From assembly GCF_044324875.1 (NCBI RefSeq), contig NZ_CP172185.1: a DNA stretch of 64,000 bases; one strand, written 5' to 3'. This document shows, in pieces, positions 4,222 through 45,607 of the stretch. Origin of the DNA: Escherichia coli. GTDB taxonomy: Bacteria > Pseudomonadota > Gammaproteobacteria > Enterobacterales > Enterobacteriaceae. The notes below the pieces were generated by a model. That model was not told the origin of the DNA and made no database searches. It was given only the letters and a program-made list of their open reading frames with translations. The position numbers and the translations under genes were made by a program. Within the stretch, counting starts at the first letter, position 1; each line of letters starts with the position of its first letter.

Positions 4222-5034
4222 TCAGATGTAGGAAGGGCGATCGTTTTTCGGTGTATCGCCGAGAGTCGAAAGCACGGTTTTACCGATTTCGCGTGCGGAG
4301 ATGACCGCCTGGCGGACTGCGCCGGAGTCACCCGAGATAATCAGAATGACTTCATTGCTGTAGCTGGTGCCTTGCGCGGGGGAGCTGTATGCCACAACAT
4401 CCACATTGGCGGACTTCAGCGCGGTGTCTGCCATCAGAACACCCACCGCAGCCGGAGCGCCGACAATAACGCCGCAAGCCCGTCCCAGTGGAGCGCCAAA
4501 CGCTTTTTCCAGTGCATAGCTGGCGCGGGCGGTATATTGCAGTTCAAGATGTCCGGCTTCGTTGGCATAGACATCGCCAAAGGTTCGATCGAGTTCTTTC
4601 AGGGCAACTTCAATACCGCGTTTCACGTCGGAAACATCGTTGCCACCTAAGAGGATCAATGAGCCGTGTCCGGCACCGCCTTTAGTATCGCGAGGAAGTT
4701 CAATGCTAATAACTTCAGTATTGGTTGCTTTTACCGCTTCATCAGCGGCCATAATGTGTGGACCTGCGCCAATACGCGCACCCAGAATGCCAATGGAACG
4801 ATAGCGTTTTTCAAGTTTCATTGCGTCCAACAGGGCGCTATCAACGTTCGCAATGACCAGACCTACAGTGTCGCCAATAGCGGTGCCAACAAATTCTGTT
4901 AACGTGCAGCTTTTTTCTGCCATAGCCGTCTCTCGTATTTGATGAGTGGTTTTCGGGAGAACCTCATGCTCTGGCGTCGCTACGCGAGCGATGACCTGCG
5001 CCATGATCTGTTCGACCAGTTCATTGCTGCTCAT
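4222..5034 (-). CDS. pduB: Microcompartment shell protein PduB
   Basis: 270 aa ORF between pduA and pduC; tandem BMC-domain shell protein by sequence and position. Confidence 0.85.
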
Positions 5035-5315
5035 GGGTTAATTCCCTTTGGTAAGATTTTTTCGACATCGGTATGTGGGCGGGGAATAACGTGCACGGCT
5101 TTTACTTCGCCGACGTTACGCGCAGCTGCGGCACCTGCGTCTGTTGCCGCTTTTACCGCCCCGACATCACCACGAACGATGACGGTCACCAGCCCGGAAC
5201 CTATTTTTTCGTAGCCGACCAGCAAAACATTTGCCGACTTCACCATGGCGTCTGCGGCCTCTATGGCGGCAGTTAAGCCTTTGGTTTCTACCATTCCTAA
5301 CGCTTCTTGTTGCAT
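5031..5315 (-). CDS. pduA: Microcompartment shell protein PduA
   Basis: 94 aa [33 protein letters not shown]..., near-identical to the PduA I remember; first gene of the pdu operon. Confidence 0.9.
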
Positions 5316-5826
5316 AAAGACCTCGCCTGGATTTTTTTGACGATATGACTATAAAAAAAAGCGAGGAAAAAGAATGGCTGACTTAATCGGCTAATGAGAA
5401 AAATTAATAGAGAACAAATATTATAAAATTGCTTTTATGAACTATATGTTGTTAATTTATTAGTTGTTTTGTGGATATTTCAATGTGAATTAATTGCGTT
5501 GGCTAGTGAGTTTAATCGCGAGTAATATTTTGTGGGGGGGTGTTCGAGGAAGGAACTGTGATATTTGTTTCAATTTTATTATGTCATGATGGCAATTTTT
5601 TATTATAAAAGTTTGGCGGTAATTATTACTTTCAACACTGATTAACGCTGTGTTGCATGATTCGGTAATGACAATAATTTGTTATGTTAGCACGATTTTT
5701 ACACGAGTCTGTCATGCATGTTAGCAATATTTTCTGCAGAGCAATTTTTTATAGTTGCGCTCGATATATACAACAATCAGCGCATAGTTGGCTGATAAAG
5801 AAAAACTCCGTAAAGAAGGTGTCACT
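5316..5826. promoter_or_regulatory. AT-rich divergent control region between pduA and pduF
   Basis: About 500 bp AT-rich intergenic DNA between divergently oriented pduA and pduF; this is where the pdu and pduF-pocR promoters lie in Salmonella. No individual site was identified. Confidence 0.4.
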
Positions 5827-6636: not shown

Positions 6637-6838
6637 CGAAATAATCTGGCAGCTATAAACGTTTATTTTTTTACTGTTTGTGATCTGCTTTCCGAACTTA
6701 TTAAAAAGTCTCCCGCTTCACGGAGGCTTTTGTTATTGTCCTTTGTGCTTCTCGTCAGTAAATCATCAGGGATGATGTGAAGATTAAATGTAAAACAATT
6801 GTTTTGCTATAACAATAAATTAACTGGGAGGTTTTATC

Positions 6839-7753: not shown

Positions 7754-7859
7754 AGTAAATGCCAAAAAAAAGGAAGGTTTAAATAAACGCTGGAATGAAT
7801 AATTAACGTTATTTACGTGTTATGGGAAAAGTGAAATCAGCTCATAACATACGCTGACA

Positions 7860-8060
7860 GGTGTGGCACATTTGTGCCAGGGAAGAGGGTGAAAATCCCT
7901 CGCAGCCCCCGCTGCTGTAATGCTGACAAACCCGAAAATGCCACTGATCGCGAGATTGGGAAGGTCGGGTGAGGATGACGCTAAGCCAGAAGACCAGTCT
8001 GTCAGTCAATACCAACAACTTCGGTGGGAAGTGGGTTGCCCGGAAGCGTCCGGTAGAGTA
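7860..8060 (+). ncRNA. Cobalamin (B12) riboswitch-like leader
   Basis: Contains GTGCCAGGGAAGAGGGTGAAAATCCC, GCAGCCCCCGCTGCTGTAA, GCCACTG and a B12-box-like AAGCCAGAAGACCAGTC, all resembling conserved cobalamin-riboswitch segments as in the btuB and cob leaders. Confidence 0.7.
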
Positions 8061-12234: not shown

Positions 12235-12310
12235 TGGCTCCTCTGACTGGACTCGAACCAGTGACATACGGATTAACAGTCCGCCGTTCTACCGACTGAA
12301 CTACAGAGGA
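12235..12310 (-). tRNA. asnV: tRNA-Asn (anticodon GUU)
   Basis: Reverse complement reads TCCTCTGTAGTTCAGTCGGTAGAACGGCGGACTGTTAATCCG...GGTTCGAGTCCAGTCAGAGGAGCCA, the E. coli tRNA-Asn sequence; gene name assigned by position. Confidence 0.95.
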
Positions 12311-14642: not shown

Positions 14643-14718
14643 TGGCTCCTCTGACTGGACTCGAACCAGTGACATACGGATTAACAGTCCGCCGTTCTAC
14701 CGACTGAACTACAGAGGA
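14643..14718 (-). tRNA. asnU: tRNA-Asn (anticodon GUU)
   Basis: Same 76-nt tRNA-Asn sequence on the minus strand. Confidence 0.95.
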
Positions 14719-16466: not shown

Positions 16467-16542
16467 TCCTCTGTAGTTCAGTCGGTAGAACGGCGGACTG
16501 TTAATCCGTATGTCACTGGTTCGAGTCCAGTCAGAGGAGCCA
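16467..16542 (+). tRNA. asnW: tRNA-Asn (anticodon GUU)
   Basis: Plus-strand TCCTCTGTAGTTCAGTCGGTAGAACGGCGGACTGTTAATCCGTATGTCACTGGTTCGAGTCCAGTCAGAGGAGCCA. Confidence 0.95.
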
Positions 16543-31801: not shown

Positions 31802-31877
31802 TGGCTCCTCTGACTGGACTCGAACCAGTGACATACGGATTAACAGTCCGCCGTTCTACCGACTGAACTACAGAGGA
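31802..31877 (-). tRNA. asnT: tRNA-Asn (anticodon GUU)
   Basis: Fourth copy of the identical 76-nt tRNA-Asn sequence, minus strand. Confidence 0.95.
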
Positions 31878-32867: not shown

Positions 32868-32957
32868 CGGAGAGATGCCGGAGCGGCTGAACGGACCGGT
32901 CTCGAAAACCGGAGTGGGGGCAACTCCACCGGGGGTTCAAATCCCCCTCTCTCCGCC
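32868..32957 (+). tRNA. serU: tRNA-Ser (anticodon CGA)
   Basis: GGAGAGATGCCGGAGCGGCTGAACGGACCGGTCTCGAAAACCGGAGTGGGGGCAACTCCACCGGGGGTTCAAATCCCCCTCTCTCCGCCA: long-variable-arm class II tRNA with anticodon CGA. Confidence 0.9.
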
Positions 32958-33002
32958 AAAATTCAATCACTTATACATCATTAAGTCAGTGACAAAAATC
33001 AC

Positions 33003-34297: not shown

Positions 34298-36751
34298 TTA
34301 AAAATCAGCCTGATTCGGGATCAGTTTTTGTATAGTGGCTGTTACGTATTTTGCCTGGTGAAGAGCGTCATCCAGAGCATTATGGCGCACGCCTTCGAAT
34401 GGAATTACGCTTCTGGCATTGAAGTCTGTGATTTTCCCCATCTCAACGATTGTGCGTACATCACGATCGTTGCTGTAATGCCACGGACAGGGGATGTCCA
34501 GACGTTCGTATGAGGTGCGCAAAATTGCGTTATCGAACGTTGCGCCATTACCCCACACCTGAACGAATTTTTCATCAGAGTGTTCATTGACGAATTGCCG
34601 AAAACGCAAAAGGGCATCTTTCATTTTTACCTGGTCAGTTAAAATGGCAGCTCTGGCTTCGCTGGACTGCTTCAGCCACCATTCGATGGTGCCACCATCA
34701 GGAACAGCCCCTGTATTCATTGCGTCAGTCAGGCTGATAACGATATAAAATACCGGCCCGATTTCCCCTGTTTCCGGGTCGAAGAAAACCGCACCAATAA
34801 CTACTATGGGTGCATTGGTGTTGGCTCCCATTGTTTCAAGGTCGACTGACAGGTGATTCCATACTCTGCTGGTGGATGTGATTTCACGATGACCGTTCAT
34901 CTTAATTAAGGAATTTTCTGTTTCGCCAGTTTTATTATCGCTGGCGTGGCCCTGAGCGCCGCCAGTGTTCTCCTTGTGCGGATGCTCAGTGCCTTCCGTT
35001 TCCTCCGGATTTTTTTCCTGAGATTCAGCCTGATTTTCTCCATTGAATGTTTCCTGGTATGTTGCGTCACCCATTACTGAGCCACAATCAGGGCAGTTGC
35101 CGCCGCTGGTCTGACCGCAGGCGGTGCAGACTTTTTCCGGTTCCTGTTGCGCTACTGGCTCAGGTTGTTTCGTTTCTGGCTCGTTTTGTAACGCATTTTG
35201 GCTGTTTTGTTCCGCTTTCTGGTCGTTCTGTTCCGTTTCTTGCTGGTTCTGGTTCACTGAATCGCGAGTCTGGACTCCCTTAACCCATTTCAGATCATTC
35301 GGGTCGCTAATCCCTTCAACGAACTCACCACGCGAGGCCGCCAGTAATTTGTCTGCATCGACAGGATTTTTGGGCGGAATGTTTTTCCTAGCTTCATGGA
35401 GTTCTGCCCGCAGTTTCTGATATTTCGCATCAACAGAATTCACCTGCGGCTGAGCATCCAGCGGCTGCGTGTCCGGATGATGTTCAGTTGTATCCGGTTC
35501 CACTGTTTCAGTCGTTGGCTGTTCATCTGCCATTGCGCCAGACGGTTGCGGTTTTTCTTCATCATCCTGTTTTCCTTCTTCTGTTACACGCTGCGGCATT
35601 GGGGCAGAGGAACGACCGCAGGCAATATCCACGATTTCCGGATCAGGGTTGGCATGATCGGTTTCGGTCAGCACTTTATTCAAGTATTCGGTGACGCGCT
35701 GGGGCATAGCCTCTATACCAACCGGTGCTTCTTTCACGGAGGCAACCACGATGGCGCGGGAATAATCCATCCCGCCTGGCATGTTCAGAAAAGCCTTAAG
35801 GAAGACGGAGAAACAGGGATCATTTTCTGCGATAATTTCGTTAACACGTCTGGTATGTGAAGGATGCATGTTGTAAATATCCACATCCATCGAACGAGCC
35901 AGTTTTCCTGTAGCAACATCGAATGCCATTGACGCATTATCATGCACAAAACCTTCGCCGCGATCGGTAAGAATACCGCCGCCAGCGTTAGCGCCGGATG
36001 GTGTGCGACTGATGCGAGAAACACGATTTCCTTTCATCCACTCTTTTGTAAGCAGACCACGATCAGTGTAGTCAGCGTCCAGGTATGCTTCGATGAAGGA
36101 GGTCATCAGTCCCAGGTCTGAATTTACGGGGGCGGGAAAAACTTTGTCAGTGTCCCGCACCAGTTTGTACAAATCCCGAATCTCCAGCGGTTCGAGTTGC
36201 GCTGCTTTATTTGAGATGGCCAGCGCGGTAACGGCGGGAAGTTTTTCTTCCTGTGCGTTATGTAATGAGCGCAGTTCATCCCGCGAAACGTGCGTTACTG
36301 GTTTTTCGCCGCCGTGTTGCGCCAGCCAGCGAACAGGCAGAATCTGACCTGAAACCGGCAGAAGCATATTCTCCTCAATCTCAGTCATGTCTTCGCCATT
36401 AACATTGGTGTTGTCAGTGCTGGCTGGTTTGTCCTGCGCGGATGGCGGAGGCGCGATAAATATCATTGTGATGCCATCTTCGCCGCCTTTTTCATACCGG
36501 TTACAGAATTCGGTATCAAACACGCCTTCCGGTGGAAGGTCATCAACAACGGGCAAATGGACGCGAACAGGTTTTTTAAAGTCGTCTTCATCATAATCGT
36601 TATCATCCATTGCGGTAATGCAGCGGGAGATGGCAACAGATAATTTTTTTGCTGTAGTCCAGTAAAAACCACCTTTAATCCCAAGGCGTTTTCTGACTTT
36701 GTCATTTTTAGCTTCGCAATATAGCGCAAAAGTTTCTTTATCAGTGCTCAT
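34298..36751 (-). CDS. Large early protein with internal Cys4 zinc-ribbon and C-terminal DnaQ-like (DEDDh) 3'-5' exonuclease domain
   Basis: 817 aa; CTACGQ...CPDCG motif; C-terminus has DLETMG ... HNALDDA spacing like DEDDh exonucleases; occupies the recE-like position but I do not see a RecE/lambda-Exo type nuclease motif. Confidence 0.55.
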
Positions 36752-37137: not shown

Positions 37138-37692
37138 CTATTTAATACTCAGCAACTGCTCGACGGTCATATTTTTAATTGCGCCCCGGTTTATGAGAGT
37201 CCATCCCTGCTTTTCCAGATAAAAACGGAAAGTATCCAGAGTACAGACCAGTGCGCCATCAGGAACTGTTTCGGTGAATTTGATGTAGCCGTGTTCGTCG
37301 AAGCGGATAACCAGGGTGCGGCCATCACCCGGGATTATTTTGTCAGCGGGTGTGGTGTTATTCCGGCGCAGTTCTTCCTCCATGCGGTCGAACTCGGCAA
37401 TGTAGGCTTCCTTGAATGCAGCGGCCTTTTTGCCCGTGAAGCCCATCACAAGGAAAACGAAGCCGTTTTTGGTGATTTGGTACATTGGGAGTTTGCGTCC
37501 TGTTGAGTCGGTGTATTCGCTCGCCTTAAAATTAAGGGCAGTGAACTCAGCGGAGCAGTCCAGTAATTTTATTTTTTGGATAACATTGTCGTGACGCTTG
37601 CCAAAGAATTCCGCGATCGCAACAGACGTAGTGACAGCGCGACCATTTTCAATGGTTACGTCAGGGTGAGAAAGGGTAAGGGTAGTAGCCAT
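37138..37692 (-). CDS. Rha-family phage regulatory protein (antirepressor-like)
   Basis: ORF track frame 37138..37989; likely start at internal MATTLTLSHPDV...; Rha-like motif ...VTTSVAIAEFFGKRHDNVIQKIKLL.... Confidence 0.65.
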   Translation of the reverse strand: MATTLTLSHPDVTIENGRAVTTSVAIAEFFGKRHDNVIQKIKLLDCSAEFTALNFKASEYTDSTGRKLPMYQITKNGFVFLVMGFTGKKAAAFKEAYIAEFDRMEEELRRNNTTPADKIIPGDGRTLVIRFDEHGYIKFTETVPDGALVCTLDTFRFYLEKQGWTLINRGAIKNMTVEQLLSIK

Positions 37693-37861
37693 AATGGCAG
37701 CCTCCACGTTGAGTATTGATAACTCACCACCGAGGCTTTCCACGACCATAATGGTGGTGAGACGTACAGGGGTGGAAATACCGGTCAACGTAGAACCCGG
37801 CCAGCCTTGCGGCTGCCCTGCACGCCCCACCATAATCTGAATGTGGCTGTGCTTCACGCAT

Positions 37862-37886
37862 AAAAAAACCGCCTGAGCGCGGTTGT
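37862..37886 (-). terminator. Intrinsic terminator on the minus strand upstream of rha
   Basis: Minus strand reads AACCGCGCTCAGGCGGTT followed by a U-run (plus strand TAAAAAAACCGCCTGAGCGCGGTT). Confidence 0.45.
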
Positions 37887-38501
37887 GCGCTACGTTTGAC
37901 TTCGGGTTTCCACGCCCGGCACCCGGTTTATGAGGTGCAGGTGCACTATAATTCCACCCGTACTGGTTTTCAATAGCTACATTCAACATTTTCTCTTACC
38001 TTTCATCACCGAAGTGAACTTTGTTGATGCGGTGCCAGGTGCCTCCAGGTGACGTTAACCAGTTAACAATTAACGCCGGATACAGAGAATCCACCCATAA
38101 CTCTGTTTTTGGTTTTAACTGTTCCACGTGCGATCAGCCGCATTCACCACATCACAAAATTCACTTTAAAAAGGGCGGCAGAGCAGTCACGGAGTAAAAC
38201 TGATACCGCAAAACGTCACCAGAAAATTGATAACAGATGGCGTTGCAGCGGGGTTGTCACTCAGGCGCATGGTCAACCTGACAACCCGGTGTCCTCAAGG
38301 GGAAGGGAACCCCGCCATGCTTACCGCCGCGCCATTTCGCGGAGTGCCACAACCGGAAGCGGACGGTCGACGAAAATTTAACGACAGGCTATATATGAAC
38401 CAGCTACCTCGCCGTGCGCTTTCGTGTTGTGTGCCTGCTTTTAACCACGTCAGGCGAGGTGGTATCCTCTGAGGGGTCTGTTACCCGAGAGGAAATTGGT
38501 T

Positions 38502-38702
38502 ATGAATACAATCAAGTTTTCTTGCCCAGAATGTGGTGGCGAAGTCTTCGACACATCCTTTAAGCCGCAGGGCTCTGACAGTTTCGCGGGAGCCATCTGC
38601 AAAAATTGTGGTCACCTTGTAACTGAAGATGAGTCCTCGCAATTCGATGAGGAAATCGTTGACAATATCTTCGGTGTAATCACCGGAGCCTTTCTGAAGT
38701 AA
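38502..38702 (+). CDS. Small zinc-ribbon protein (CxxC...CxxC)
   Basis: MNTIKFSCPECGG...CKNCGH...; GAGG 8 nt upstream of the ATG; opposite orientation to neighbouring early genes. Confidence 0.5.
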   Translation: MNTIKFSCPECGGEVFDTSFKPQGSDSFAGAICKNCGHLVTEDESSQFDEEIVDNIFGVITGAFLK

Positions 38703-39068
38703 AGGCACATACCGCTTAGTTACCGCTCTGATAATTCTTACCTGCCCGGCAATGGCGCTGATGTCAATATAAAGCGCCATTGCTGCTTCTTTGCCGATCC
38801 CGGGATGCCTTCCATTCTGATGTTTGACTTCGCCCACTGAGAAATCCTCTGTTTCCCCTTAACGCCGGGGTAGCGGAACAAAAACCTGCTGCATAGTTAA
38901 AGTTAAACCCTGCCGTCATGTTCATACGCCTCGGGCTGGCTACTTAACCCCTGACCACTGCCTGGTAACTCGAAGTATTGCCCTGCGTTCTGTGGGGCGG
39001 GGTGGGTTGGTGAAATTAGTTTATACAAAAATAAACTTAACAGTCAATCTGCAACTTAACTAAACAGT

Positions 39069-39098
39069 AAAAAATAACACTCTCTTTGAGAGTGTTTA
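39069..39098 (-). terminator. Intrinsic terminator downstream of the RelE/ParE-like toxin gene
   Basis: AACACTCTC-TTT-GAGAGTGTT perfect 9-bp stem, followed on the minus strand by a U-run. Confidence 0.5.
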
Positions 39099-39121
39099 AG
39101 GCTGTGTTGATGGGCAGAGGG

Positions 39122-39406
39122 TTATGTTACAGGGAACTGTCGGCGGGTATGGACTACGTTTACTATTTCAATACTTGAGGTTGTCACGCGGTACAGAATT
39201 ATATAATTGGGGTGAGCCACAATCTCACGTAAGCCTGGCACTCTGTCGCTTGGGGGGTATAAATACGGATGTTCGGATAATGGCAGCACACACCCCCTTA
39301 ATCGCTGCCATAAGCGTTCTGCCGCATCTATGTCGAAACGAGCAATGTAACTAGTTATATCATCCAGGTCGGTATCTGCGCTTTCAGGCCATAACACAGG
39401 TAACAT
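39122..39406 (-). CDS. RelE/ParE-family type II toxin
   Basis: 94 aa ORF abutting the stop of an upstream small ORF; typical size and basic C-terminal region for RelE/ParE-family toxins. Confidence 0.7.
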   Translation of the reverse strand: MLPVLWPESADTDLDDITSYIARFDIDAAERLWQRLRGCVLPLSEHPYLYPPSDRVPGLREIVAHPNYIILYRVTTSSIEIVNVVHTRRQFPVT

Positions 39407-39598
39407 TTACTGTTCACTCCGTTCCTTGCGTATTTTAGCAAAGCGTTCTGCCATTCTGCGCTCAACTTCGTCATGGGGAATTGCTGGGCGCGGATCTGCA
39501 AGGCTTGCAGCTACTTTGGCTCGCAGCCATTCGTTGTAACTGTTTTCTTGTTCAATAGTTTCAAACTCAGAAACCATTGGTGAAAGGGCCGTATTCAT
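39407..39598 (-). CDS. Putative antitoxin partner of the RelE/ParE-like toxin
   Basis: Start at internal MNTALSPMVSEF... with GGAGG 7 nt upstream; 63 aa acidic protein directly upstream of and abutting the toxin gene. Confidence 0.55.
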   Translation of the reverse strand: MNTALSPMVSEFETIEQENSYNEWLRAKVAASLADPRPAIPHDEVERRMAERFAKIRKERSEQ

Positions 39599-39627
39599 GG
39601 CACACCTCCGTCTGTGTATGGTGGTCA

Positions 39628-40026
39628 TTATGCCCGATGCCCTTTCCGGGCAGCGAGCCATCTTTCAATTGTGCGATCCATTAACTCTTTTTTGTCTTTC
39701 ATCTCCTGAAGCATTTGCTCTTGATCTTCCTCTGGAAATGCCTCAAATGTTTGAAGTAGCTCCTTTTGCCTAGGAGTTATTTTTATTATATCTTGTATTC
39801 TGTCATTTTTTTCTTCATTTAACGGTAAGAAGAACCAATACTGAGGATATCCTGTTGCTTCAGATAGTTTATCTAGATTAGCTGCTGTAGGGCTTGAGAT
39901 ACCACAAACCCATCTTTGAACGGATTGTTGAGTAATGCCAATTCTGCGCGCAAGTTCTGCCTGGCTCCAGCCTGTTACCAACAAAAGCTTCCTAATTCTA
40001 AGAGCACTAATTTCGAGTACACCCAT
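39628..40026 (-). CDS. XRE-family HTH regulator (repressor-like, paralog A)
   Basis: ORF track frame 39628..40101; HTH segment SQAELARRIGITQQSVQRW; C-terminal 45 aa paralogous to the neighbouring gene; start codon uncertain. Confidence 0.6.
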   Translation of the reverse strand: MGVLEISALRIRKLLLVTGWSQAELARRIGITQQSVQRWVCGISSPTAANLDKLSEATGYPQYWFFLPLNEEKNDRIQDIIKITPRQKELLQTFEAFPEEDQEQMLQEMKDKKELMDRTIERWLAARKGHRA

Positions 40027-40060
40027 CTGATATATCTTGTTTTTAAGAGTATGCTTCCCA

Positions 40061-40432
40061 TCAGGCGCGGCGACCTTGCTGCGCCAACCAACGTGCGACA
40101 AAATCTTCCATTGCTTCTTTTTTGTTTCTTAGTTCTTTTATGATCTCTTGCTGTTCATTATCAGGAAATGCACTAAATATTTGTAGCAATTCCAGCTGGT
40201 TAGGGGTTAATGCTATAGCTCTTGATGATGGAGACTCTGTTATGTCTTCTGGCTCAATATCAAGATAACCCCCTGGCATCCCATATGTTTGTTCAATACG
40301 TCTAGCTGCTTTTTCGCCAAACGTAGCCTTACCGCTCATTAACTGAGATAAGTAACTTTTCTCTTTGGGTGGCAAAGTTCTGTCTTTGAACCACTCTTTG
40401 AGGCGTAAACGCCGAATCTCTCTTGTTTCCAT
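40061..40432 (-). CDS. HTH regulator (CI-like repressor lacking a peptidase domain, paralog B)
   Basis: 123 aa; C-terminal segment LTPNQLELLQIFSAFPDNEQQEIIKELRNKKEAMEDFVARWLAQ resembles that of paralog A; divergent from the Cro-like gene. Confidence 0.65.
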   Translation of the reverse strand: METREIRRLRLKEWFKDRTLPPKEKSYLSQLMSGKATFGEKAARRIEQTYGMPGGYLDIEPEDITESPSSRAIALTPNQLELLQIFSAFPDNEQQEIIKELRNKKEAMEDFVARWLAQQGRRA

Positions 40433-40535
40433 ACATGCATTATCTTTAGTAATTGCGAAATAAGCAAATACTTGACTGGTTTATTTAGTTACGTATAAAC
40501 TTTTGCTTGCACTAAAGTATGTTGAGATCGAAATC

Positions 40536-45215: not shown

Positions 45216-45451
45216 TTTTATGGATCACCTTTCTGATTGATTTCATATTGGCGAGGTGACGGGAGTTAAGTAGAATTGCTGCGGGTGCTTGAGGCTATCT
45301 GCCTCGGGCATGAACACCAACGGCAGATAGAGAAAAGCCCCAGTTAACATTATGCGTCCTGCAAGACGCTTAACATTAATCTGAGGCAGAATCTATGTCT
45401 AGCAAATGTAGGTTAGCCTCTTACGTGCCGAAAGGCAAGGAGAAGCAGGCT

Positions 45452-45607
45452 ATGAAGCAGCAAAAGGCGATGTTAGTCGCCCTGATCGTCATCTGTATTA
45501 CCGTCATTGTGACGGCACTGGTAACGAGGAAAGACCTCTGCGAGGTACGAATCCGAACCGGCCAGACGGAGGTCGCTGTCTTCACAGCTTACGAACCTGA
45601 GGAGTAA
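45452..45607 (+). CDS. hok: Hok/Gef-family type I toxin
   Basis: MKQQKAMLVALIVICITVIVTALVTRKDLCEVRIRTGQTEVAVFTAYEPEE, 51 aa, near-identical to chromosomal Hok/Gef peptides; the ORF track frame extends in-frame upstream to 45395. Confidence 0.8.
   Translation: MKQQKAMLVALIVICITVIVTALVTRKDLCEVRIRTGQTEVAVFTAYEPEE

Follow-up and report, generated by a model that had tools for sequence, protein, structure and literature searches.

A conserved zinc-ribbon cassette antisense to a second open reading frame at the probable head of a prophage early-left operon in Escherichia coli

What occupies the ~1.1 kb between the antirepressor gene rha and a RelB-RelE toxin-antitoxin pair in a prophage of Escherichia coli (RefSeq assembly GCF_044324875.1, contig NZ_CP172185.1)? 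A 64000 nucleotide (nt) stretch of this contig, here called the window, was analysed, and all coordinates refer to it; L numbers denote comparison loci, L088 being the Qin prophage of E. coli K-12. An original prediction had taken the interval (37990–39121) to be a structured region poor in open reading frames (ORFs), with a lone zinc-ribbon gene on the opposite strand and possibly small RNAs (sRNAs) that control the antirepressor. The interval is likely to be the promoter-proximal head of the early-left operon of a lambdoid (Rac/Qin-type) prophage, transcribed on the minus strand from an early-left promoter (PL), with a cassette nested in it. The part that appears to be new is this cassette, a conserved and self-contained zinc-ribbon unit lying antisense within a second conserved ORF, named orfY here. 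The identities, positions and order of the parts were established, as were their conservation and covariation and the selection acting on the frame of the zinc-ribbon protein.

The zinc-ribbon gene and orfY

The 66 amino acid (aa) ORF with a CxxC...CxxC pattern and a good ribosome-binding site was found as predicted, at 38502–38702 on the plus strand, with CPEC...CKNC motifs and the sequence GAGAGGAAA (38487–38495) located 6 nt ahead of its ATG. The product belongs to the ECs_2282 family of putative zinc-binding proteins (NF047912, 57.1 bits against a cut-off of 37), and relatives are encoded in prophages of E. coli, Klebsiella, Citrobacter and Enterobacter, with more distant ones in metagenomic phages. 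In each of seven lineages, the most distant at 44% identity, the ORF is 201 nt (66 codons) long with an ATG start and a Shine-Dalgarno sequence, and the four Cys residues of the two CxxC pairs are invariant in 9 of 9 aligned members. The AlphaFold model of the protein has a pLDDT of 63.5.

Among 35 unique E. coli-type copies, changes at the three codon positions of the zinc-ribbon frame numbered 5/3/19 (8/3/20 in another count). Possible changes were classed as nonsynonymous (N) or synonymous (S), the first letter referring to the zinc-ribbon frame and the second to orfY, and the rates per possible change in the same copies were 0.021 for NN, 0.031 for NS, 0.130 for SN and 0.125 for SS. Pairwise omega for the zinc-ribbon frame, omega(Zn), was 0.13–0.46. 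These patterns of change point clearly to purifying selection on the zinc-ribbon frame, and the zinc-ribbon gene is very probably real.

Membership of the Lar restriction-alleviation family (TIGR03655) was considered and rejected (E=0.01, 16 bits against a cut-off of 39.6); the protein is like Lar-type phage zinc-ribbon proteins in its size, its two CxxC knuckles and its location in a prophage early region. Sequence searches of Pfam, PADLOC and the PDB returned nothing significant for the zinc-ribbon protein or the orfY product. Literature searches using locus tags, accessions and family identifiers turned up no mention of either protein or of the overlap between them, nor did a paper on overlapping genes of enterohaemorrhagic E. 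coli (EHEC), and the nested antisense gene pair is apparently undescribed so far.

The premise that the minus strand of the interval holds no ORF of 60 aa or more was wrong, as orfY, found in the ORF list at 38481–38837 (minus strand), encodes 118 aa from a GTG at 38837 or 99 aa from an ATG at 38780 and matches phrog_21318 (2e-61). In the window the zinc-ribbon gene lies wholly inside orfY, antisense to it and in exact reverse-complement codon register, so that a TTA, CTA or TCA codon in either frame reads as a stop codon in the opposite one. Both frames are intact in seven lineages, down to 36–44% identity, the exceptions being the pseudogene copies L083 and L089 and two nonsense alleles of the zinc-ribbon gene. 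Every lineage, even at 36% identity, retains an open orfY frame that extends 10–93 codons past the shared part. The GTG in the window is preceded by a Shine-Dalgarno sequence, AGAGGA (38845–38850), 7 nt upstream, and the corresponding start signals are AGGAGAGGAAATG in L003 and AGGAGGTCGTATG in L093. In phages with otherwise unrelated neighbours, orfY is always the first ORF after the cI-like repressor gene and on the same strand.

An alpha/beta fold was predicted for the orfY product (AlphaFold pLDDT 83.6, pTM 0.68), and its superposition on the AFDB model of a Serratia homologue with 47% identity gave a TM of 0.92. A scan of species-representative genomes with an orfY profile found nothing, and searching 1.84 billion representative proteins with a profile brought up 7 clusters only, indicating that the family is narrow. 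In L004 and L118, orfY is fused in frame to a 77 aa protein that is encoded by a stand-alone PL-first gene in other phages; the fused gene of L004 is at 4998–5519 on the minus strand. The corresponding family of 77–90 aa proteins (…AVAADYI.F…LEREANASGKTI.H…) is encoded by the first gene after the repressor gene in phages that have no cassette (L178–L181), and L084-type phages retain a remnant of its C-terminus.

Well-supported nested antisense gene pairs are, to our knowledge, very few in bacteria and phages, and the zinc-ribbon/orfY cassette is a clean candidate for a conserved one. The balance is slightly in favour of orfY being a gene, its coding capacity being probable but not proven, and whether the zinc-ribbon gene and orfY are both real is evenly poised. 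We tentatively suggest that they may be a true and ancient nested sense-antisense coding pair, carried as a mobile cassette at the heads of the PL operons of enterobacterial lambdoid phages, and that the two strands may be used in alternative states, the zinc-ribbon gene when PL is repressed and orfY when PL fires. If this is true, one DNA segment gives a different protein, and an antisense RNA, according to the lysis-lysogeny state.

It is also quite possible, though short of probable, that the zinc-ribbon gene alone is real and that orfY is a shadow ORF, held open by its exact register with a gene poor in TTA, CTA and TCA codons. The conservation of orfY would then reflect the zinc-ribbon gene and its terminator hairpin, and this is what is implied by the usual annotation from PGAP, which places the gene on the plus strand at most loci. 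Many observations fit a shadow ORF and weigh against a coding pair. In the E. coli-type copies the SN rate equals the SS rate, leaving orfY with no detectable constraint in the overlap, where omega for the orfY frame, omega(Y), is 0.49–1.34 compared with 0.13–0.46 for the zinc-ribbon frame, and at three columns orfY flips between K and E while the zinc-ribbon Phe is retained. The termini of orfY vary between lineages, and for its N-terminus outside the overlap, which coincides with the hairpin, a hidden Markov model (HMM) test gave no excess of protein-level over DNA-level conservation. The chance of the overlap staying open in the orfY frame is 0.10–0.35 per lineage, which is not negligible. 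Column-wise tests are uninformative for orfY coding, as Arg is imposed on one frame wherever the other has a P, S or T codon, and thus the genetic code itself yields much of the column conservation of orfY.

Other findings are not those expected of a shadow ORF, namely the continuation of orfY past its homologous part, seen in every lineage along with good start signals and Shine-Dalgarno sequences, the confidence of its predicted fold and the recurrence of that fold in the 47%-identical homologue, an omega(Y) of 0.16–0.6 across the 26 non-overlapping codons, and the in-frame fusion to a real upstream gene that is kept in two sublineages. Where a stop interrupts the zinc-ribbon frame, PGAP itself annotates the opposite strand, that of orfY (WP_001240336.1, 99 aa). 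The proposal of a coding pair must further accommodate the two independent zinc-ribbon nonsense alleles in the sampled prophages, E14* (GAA to TAA) and E44* (GAG to TAG, silent in orfY), located at L174 (NZ_CP035767.1; coordinates 2542–2841) and at L033, L048, L050, L020 and L065, the last of which carries E44*; these alleles show that some prophages can do without the zinc-ribbon gene. In addition, no fold or family match points to a function for either protein.

Flanking elements of the cassette

A conserved element marks the left edge of the cassette (38433–38468, plus strand) and consists of the palindrome GCCTG (38433–38437)/CAGGC (38451–38455) followed by TTTAAC-17-TGgTATCCT. We infer that it is an extended -10-like promoter of the zinc-ribbon gene. 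Its consensus, GCCTG...TTTTaACCAC...CAGGC..GGTGGTATyCT, is common to most lineages, including L090 and L093, and is divergent in L003. In L090 the palindrome arms change symmetrically to GCCGGG/CCCGGC, and homology between lineages breaks exactly at the 5' edge of the element. Against a promoter here, the -35 is weak and the site was not called by a consensus scan. The palindrome (GCCTG-N13-CAGGC, 38433–38455) coincides exactly with the mosaic boundary of the cassette and reaches into the putative -35 region; its role could be that of an operator, or of an RNA hairpin located just after the orfY stop codon.

On the other side of the gene, the perfect 11 bp inverted repeat noted in the original prediction was recovered, with arms at 38749–38759 and 38773–38783 and a 13 nt loop. 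It begins 47 nt past the zinc-ribbon stop codon and contains, on the other strand, the orfY ATG at 38780. An inverted repeat of this kind arose in 11 of 3000 dinucleotide shuffles of 37990–39121. The hairpin is in register in every lineage with differing arm sequences, and among 11 variants 74% of cells were paired, compared with 29–60% when the partner was slid. Eight pairs have changed on both sides, and a covariation score as high came from none of 500 shuffles. A single pair alternates between G-C (5 of the 11 variants) and G-U (another 5), an exchange that works in plus-strand RNA only. From this pattern, the hairpin (38749–38783, plus strand) is probably the terminator of the zinc-ribbon gene, and the combination of the upstream element with a covarying plus-strand hairpin led us to regard the cassette as a plus-strand transcription unit in its own right.

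It is unlikely, though worth weighing, that the repeat is instead a structure that sequesters the orfY ATG in minus-strand mRNA, or a protein-binding palindrome. In its favour are the location of this ATG inside one arm, a weak U-tract after the stem in several lineages, and the terminator scan, which did not list the hairpin. The U-tract is poor in the window (UGCUUCUUU tail) and poor or absent in L084-type phages, which also counts against a terminator. However, the G-U pair would be a C-A mismatch in minus-strand RNA, and the arms change freely while pairing is kept, unlike those of a fixed protein operator. Furthermore, the plus-strand U-tracts in L004 and L093 are good, and orfY starts elsewhere in several lineages.

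The idea that the interval holds new sRNAs or structures controlling the Rha antirepressor now seems very improbable. It could draw on the conserved covarying hairpins at 38433–38455 and 38749–38783, and transcription from PL could pass the terminator of the sRNA DicF toward rha. However, the antirepressor gene already has a described isrK/orf45/C4 switch with its own promoter immediately upstream, and the hairpins travel with the cassette into phages that have no dicF or rha downstream. A covariance-model scan, proposed with the original prediction, placed DicF, isrK and C4 above their gathering thresholds, and an Rfam search at a permissive E-value over 37400–39700 found no new family beyond noise in 38225–39121. 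Folding z-scores were unremarkable, at -2.1 for 38470–38830 (plus strand) and -1.1 for 38160–38460 (minus strand), with energies only slightly under those of shuffled controls, giving weak support to the description of this DNA as hairpin-rich. The guess of small RNAs was therefore right in spirit and partly supported, while its ORF-poor premise was not: DicF is present in the interval but targets ftsZ and metabolic mRNAs rather than the antirepressor, and the RNAs that would control the antirepressor, isrK and C4, exist but belong to described families and lie mostly outside the interval (37750–37938). Described elements, namely DicF, the remnant of a dicBF/PL-type operon and the isrK/C4 switch, account for most of the interval, and the search for new regulatory RNAs in it is largely closed.

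That orfY alone is real and the zinc-ribbon ORF a chance antisense frame is hardly credible, for although the minus strand is annotated by PHROGs and some RefSeq genomes, the AlphaFold model of orfY is the better one (83.6 against 63.5) and zinc-ribbon nonsense alleles occur with orfY intact, the zinc-ribbon frame has the 5/3/19 pattern of changes, keeps its 66 codons, ATG and Shine-Dalgarno sequence in all lineages even where orfY ends before that ATG, retains four Cys codons whose first positions never vary though such changes are synonymous in orfY, encodes the more conserved protein (44–65% identity against 36–60% for orfY) and is followed by a hairpin with a G-U pair that functions only in plus-strand RNA.

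On the likely reading of the interval as an operon head with the cassette nested in it, the activity of the promoters, termination, the timing of expression, antisense interference and the translation of orfY would be as follows. In the lysogen a DicA-like repressor would keep the PL-like promoter (39018–39047) off, and the zinc-ribbon cassette, being independent of PL, would be the only active unit in the interval, yielding the 66 aa protein and an RNA of ~300 nt antisense to most of orfY. On derepression, transcription from PL would run against the zinc-ribbon unit, via orfY, into the DicF precursor, and convergent transcription from PL and from the cassette would be expected to cause mutual interference. 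[quoted passage not shown] Further downstream, a separate promoter would, by analogy with Gifsy-1, drive an isrK-orf45/C4 switch gating the translation of Rha. The fixed position of the cassette, immediately after PL and facing it, suggests that in the lysogen it may help to silence the toxic early genes (DicF, DicB, Kil), or may serve lysogen-specific functions.

Convergent antisense transcripts are known from phage immunity regions, examples being lambda OOP against cII and P22 sar against ant. The cassette would resemble these as a short, separately promoted and terminated transcript opposite an early lytic transcript near the immunity region, but differs in that the antisense unit encodes a conserved 66 aa zinc-ribbon protein and in being known from sequence alone. 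The embedded antisense genes of EHEC, such as ano (PMC5960689, PMC9927249), are like the cassette in that a short ORF is fully inside a longer antisense ORF, and the EHEC ORFs are young, narrowly distributed and located within well-established genes. In contrast, the embedded zinc-ribbon gene is the better-supported partner and is flanked by conserved promoter-like and hairpin elements of its own, and prophages of E. coli, Klebsiella, Citrobacter and Enterobacter have all kept the two frames, although the pair, unlike the EHEC genes, has been seen only as sequence.

Of 5426 complete E. coli genomes, 936 carry the cassette, at 1399 loci in total. At least 80% of 37690–39125 was covered in 10 of the 5426 genomes, and 4679 matched some part of it. 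The locus is annotated inconsistently in RefSeq and phage records, either strand of the cassette being called and Rha being extended over two RNA genes, which affects at least 936 complete E. coli genomes.

The probable early-left operon and its dicF region

The operon at whose head the cassette probably lies is of the lambda-PL/dicBp type and would be repressor-controlled. A terminator scan identified an intrinsic terminator at 39076–39096 on the minus strand, also found as inverted repeat I9 (AACACTCTC-AAA-GAGAGTGTT then ATTTTTT). It is directly downstream of the stop codon of the RelE/ParE gene at 39122 and closes the repressor/RelB-RelE transcription unit. The PL/dicBp-like early-left promoter (TTGACT-18-TAAACT) was found by a promoter scan at 39018–39047 on the minus strand, and a GTTTAT-N6-ATAAAC palindrome within it (39019–39036) is probably its operator. 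The PL-like promoter and the rightward promoter region at 40472–40501 share TTGACTG, GTTTATTT, GTATAAACT and a GTTTAT-Nx-ATAAAC palindrome, which fits a common repressor, as for lambda PL and PR and for K-12 dicBp, a promoter under repressor control (PMC10448788). A by-eye look for nutL-like boxA/boxB in the PL leader found nothing convincing.

Two tandem ORFs related to DicA (39628–40101 and 40061–40432, minus strand), which overlap by 41 nt, score 58.9 and 30.9 bits against NF007257, below its cut-off of 101. For the upstream ORF (123 aa) the match is limited to the C-terminal half of DicA models, and its product shares 72% identity with an O157 'hypothetical protein' encoded next to RelB; the second (157 aa) has a helix-turn-helix motif; the two may be a duplicated or split repressor.

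The region 38432–39599 is 89.9% identical to a module in an O157:H7 prophage, where the gene order is RelB/RelE, zinc-ribbon gene, ydfC, dicF, dicB and ydfD. A 28 nt remnant of the 5' leader of K-12 ydfA (38852–38879, minus strand; 96% identical to positions 1971–1998 of L088) is just upstream of the orfY Shine-Dalgarno sequence, and its K-12 counterpart is immediately upstream of ydfA. The PL leader also contains a 53 aa ORF with an ATG start (38764–38925, minus strand), which overlaps the start of orfY in a different frame and of which the first 25 residues match phrog_37620.

The sRNA DicF is encoded at 38173–38224 on the minus strand (RF00039, 67.3 bits against a gathering threshold of 48, model positions 1–52 of 52) and is identical to K-12 dicF at 52 of 53 nt. 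The stem at its 3' end finishes with GCCGCCC and is followed by TTTTT at 38168–38172, forming its own intrinsic terminator. A single G-to-U change from K-12, at DicF position 16 (window position 38209), counts against the operon-head reading; it affects the first pair of the terminator-proximal stem, at the stem base, and Rfam flags that pair as non-canonical. In K-12, DicF is made by processing of a long dicBF transcript (PMC10448788), and it targets ftsZ and metabolic mRNAs (PMC10448788, PMC5069750).

The flanks of DicF are also of Qin type, 38015–38442 being 93.8% identical to positions 2663–3092 of L088, a segment that in K-12 runs from just after ydfC, across dicF, up to 18 nt before dicB. 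The leader of the DicF precursor (38225–38442, minus strand) is equivalent to the K-12 ydfC-dicF intergenic region, ydfC itself being absent; in O157, ydfC sits in a 361 nt segment that is missing from the window. On the other side, 38015–38172 (minus strand) is a remnant of the dicF-dicB spacer, and homology to both K-12 and O157 ends at 38015, near which the comparison places a recombination junction, 18 nt short of the expected start of dicB, with dicB lost. The isrK/C4-rha module begins where the homology to the dicF region ends (~38015). The interval could have turned out to be degraded remnants of known genes, and this holds in part, in that 38015–38442 is the dicF segment of K-12 Qin and the other dicBF genes are gone. 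A tblastn search with the DicB, YdfA, YdfB, YdfC and YdfD proteins of K-12 and O157 found no match anywhere in the window. At the equivalent place in L001, PGAP calls a pseudogene, 'DicB, missing C-terminus', and this 'DicB fragment' was rejected as canonical DicB sequence by the homology and tblastn comparisons. A sub-threshold Rfam match to STnc100 was present in the spacer remnant region.

The locus is like K-12 Qin dicBF (dicBp-ydfABC-dicF-dicB-ydfDE) in having a PL-like promoter, probably repressor-controlled, beside a putative DicA-like repressor and a nearly identical DicF with its own terminator and flanks ~94% identical, and DicF would likewise come from processing of a long transcript (PMC10448788). 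However, it has no ydfA, ydfB, ydfC, dicB or ydfD, it begins with orfY and the zinc-ribbon gene nested there, an arrangement known from O157-type prophages, its repressor and promoter are separated by a RelBE pair with a terminator, and the isrK/C4-rha module takes the place of dicB.

The isrK, C4 and rha region and the rest of the window

The left boundary of the interval, 37989, is the end of an over-extended rha ORF. The antirepressor gene with its start corrected would encode 184 aa (37138–37692, minus strand), with GGAGG 8 nt upstream. In the 283 aa ORF, the Rha domain (TIGR02681) spans residues 109–209, and the first ~99 codons overlie Rfam matches to C4 and isrK. The ORF-less leader of rha would therefore begin at 37693.

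In the stretch 37693–37989, a promoter-like site (37945–37973, minus strand; TTGAAA-17-TATAGT, 10/12 matches in the promoter scan) is placed as is the isrK promoter (PisrK/P51-type) described for Gifsy-1 (PMC4825925). The isrK sRNA follows at 37862–37938 on the minus strand (RF01394, 67.1 bits against a gathering threshold of 50) and ends in a terminator found by the terminator scan (37884–37867, then TTTTTTT). A c4-a1b1 match (RF03163) overlapping isrK at 37899–37951 scored 25.9 bits, below the gathering threshold of 46.7. Directly after isrK is a 45-codon leader ORF of the orf45 type with an ATG start (37724–37861, minus strand), and it overlaps a C4-type antisense RNA (37750–37837, minus strand; RF01695, 78.6 bits against a gathering threshold of 45).

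In a comparison of the window with ST64B, Stx2a_WGPS2 and one Citrobacter phage (n=4), the inner stem of C4 covaries, the pairs in the four being CAGCC/GGCTG, CCAGT/GCTGG, CCAAC/GTTGG and CCGAC/GTCGG. The C4 loop TCAACGTAGA (37794–37785) is complementary to TCCACGTTGA (37703–37712), which spans the GGAGG of rha (I4; 10 nt, 90%). The start motif GAGGCTGCCAyyATGGCTAC is kept in ST64B and Stx2a_WGPS2. Given the covarying stem, the pairing of the loop with the ribosome-binding site region and the retention of the start motif, 37693–37989 appears to be RNA and not the N-terminus of Rha, and the true start of rha is probably 37692.

The long rha ORF is nevertheless annotated by PGAP and in several phage records. 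ORFs annotated as Rha or 'transcriptional regulator' cover both isrK and C4 in RefSeq E. coli, ST64B (sb41, 385 aa) and Stx2a_WGPS2, as seen at L001, L175 and L176. The translation of 37693–37989 (minus strand) is matched by phrog_995, 821, 6928, 3960, 29966 and 4908, and these records suggest that over-extension of the Rha N-terminus is widespread in annotation.

The module resembles isrK-orf45-anrP of Gifsy-1 in Salmonella, where short IsrK was shown to activate translation of orf45 and the antirepressor gene anrP in trans (PMC4825925), both having isrK with its terminator, a 45-codon ORF, a Rha/antirepressor gene and an isrK-proximal promoter. It differs in that it lies outside the interval first considered. 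It also resembles the immI region of P1 and P7 (c4-icd-ant) in its C4 match, in a loop directed at the ribosome-binding site region of the antirepressor gene and in the covarying stem, but the a1/b1 model is below its gathering threshold, there is no icd homologue, and the target is of the Rha type and not P1 Ant.

Elsewhere in the window, a match to the sok antitoxin RNA (45283–45457, plus strand; 114.9 bits) adjoins a 70 aa ORF at 45395–45607, and the two look like a hok/sok-type module of the same prophage. Five tRNA genes, four for tRNA-Asn(GTT) and one for tRNA-Ser(CGA), are located at 12235–12310, 14643–14718, 16467–16542, 31802–31877 and 32869–32958. The tRNA-Ser gene is just before the leftward genes of the prophage (exonuclease, 34298–36751) and may be the site of prophage integration. 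The chromosomal part of the window also includes a cobalamin riboswitch (7842–8016, plus strand; 104.7 bits) and the sRNA STnc230 (6695–6778, minus strand; 74.8 bits).

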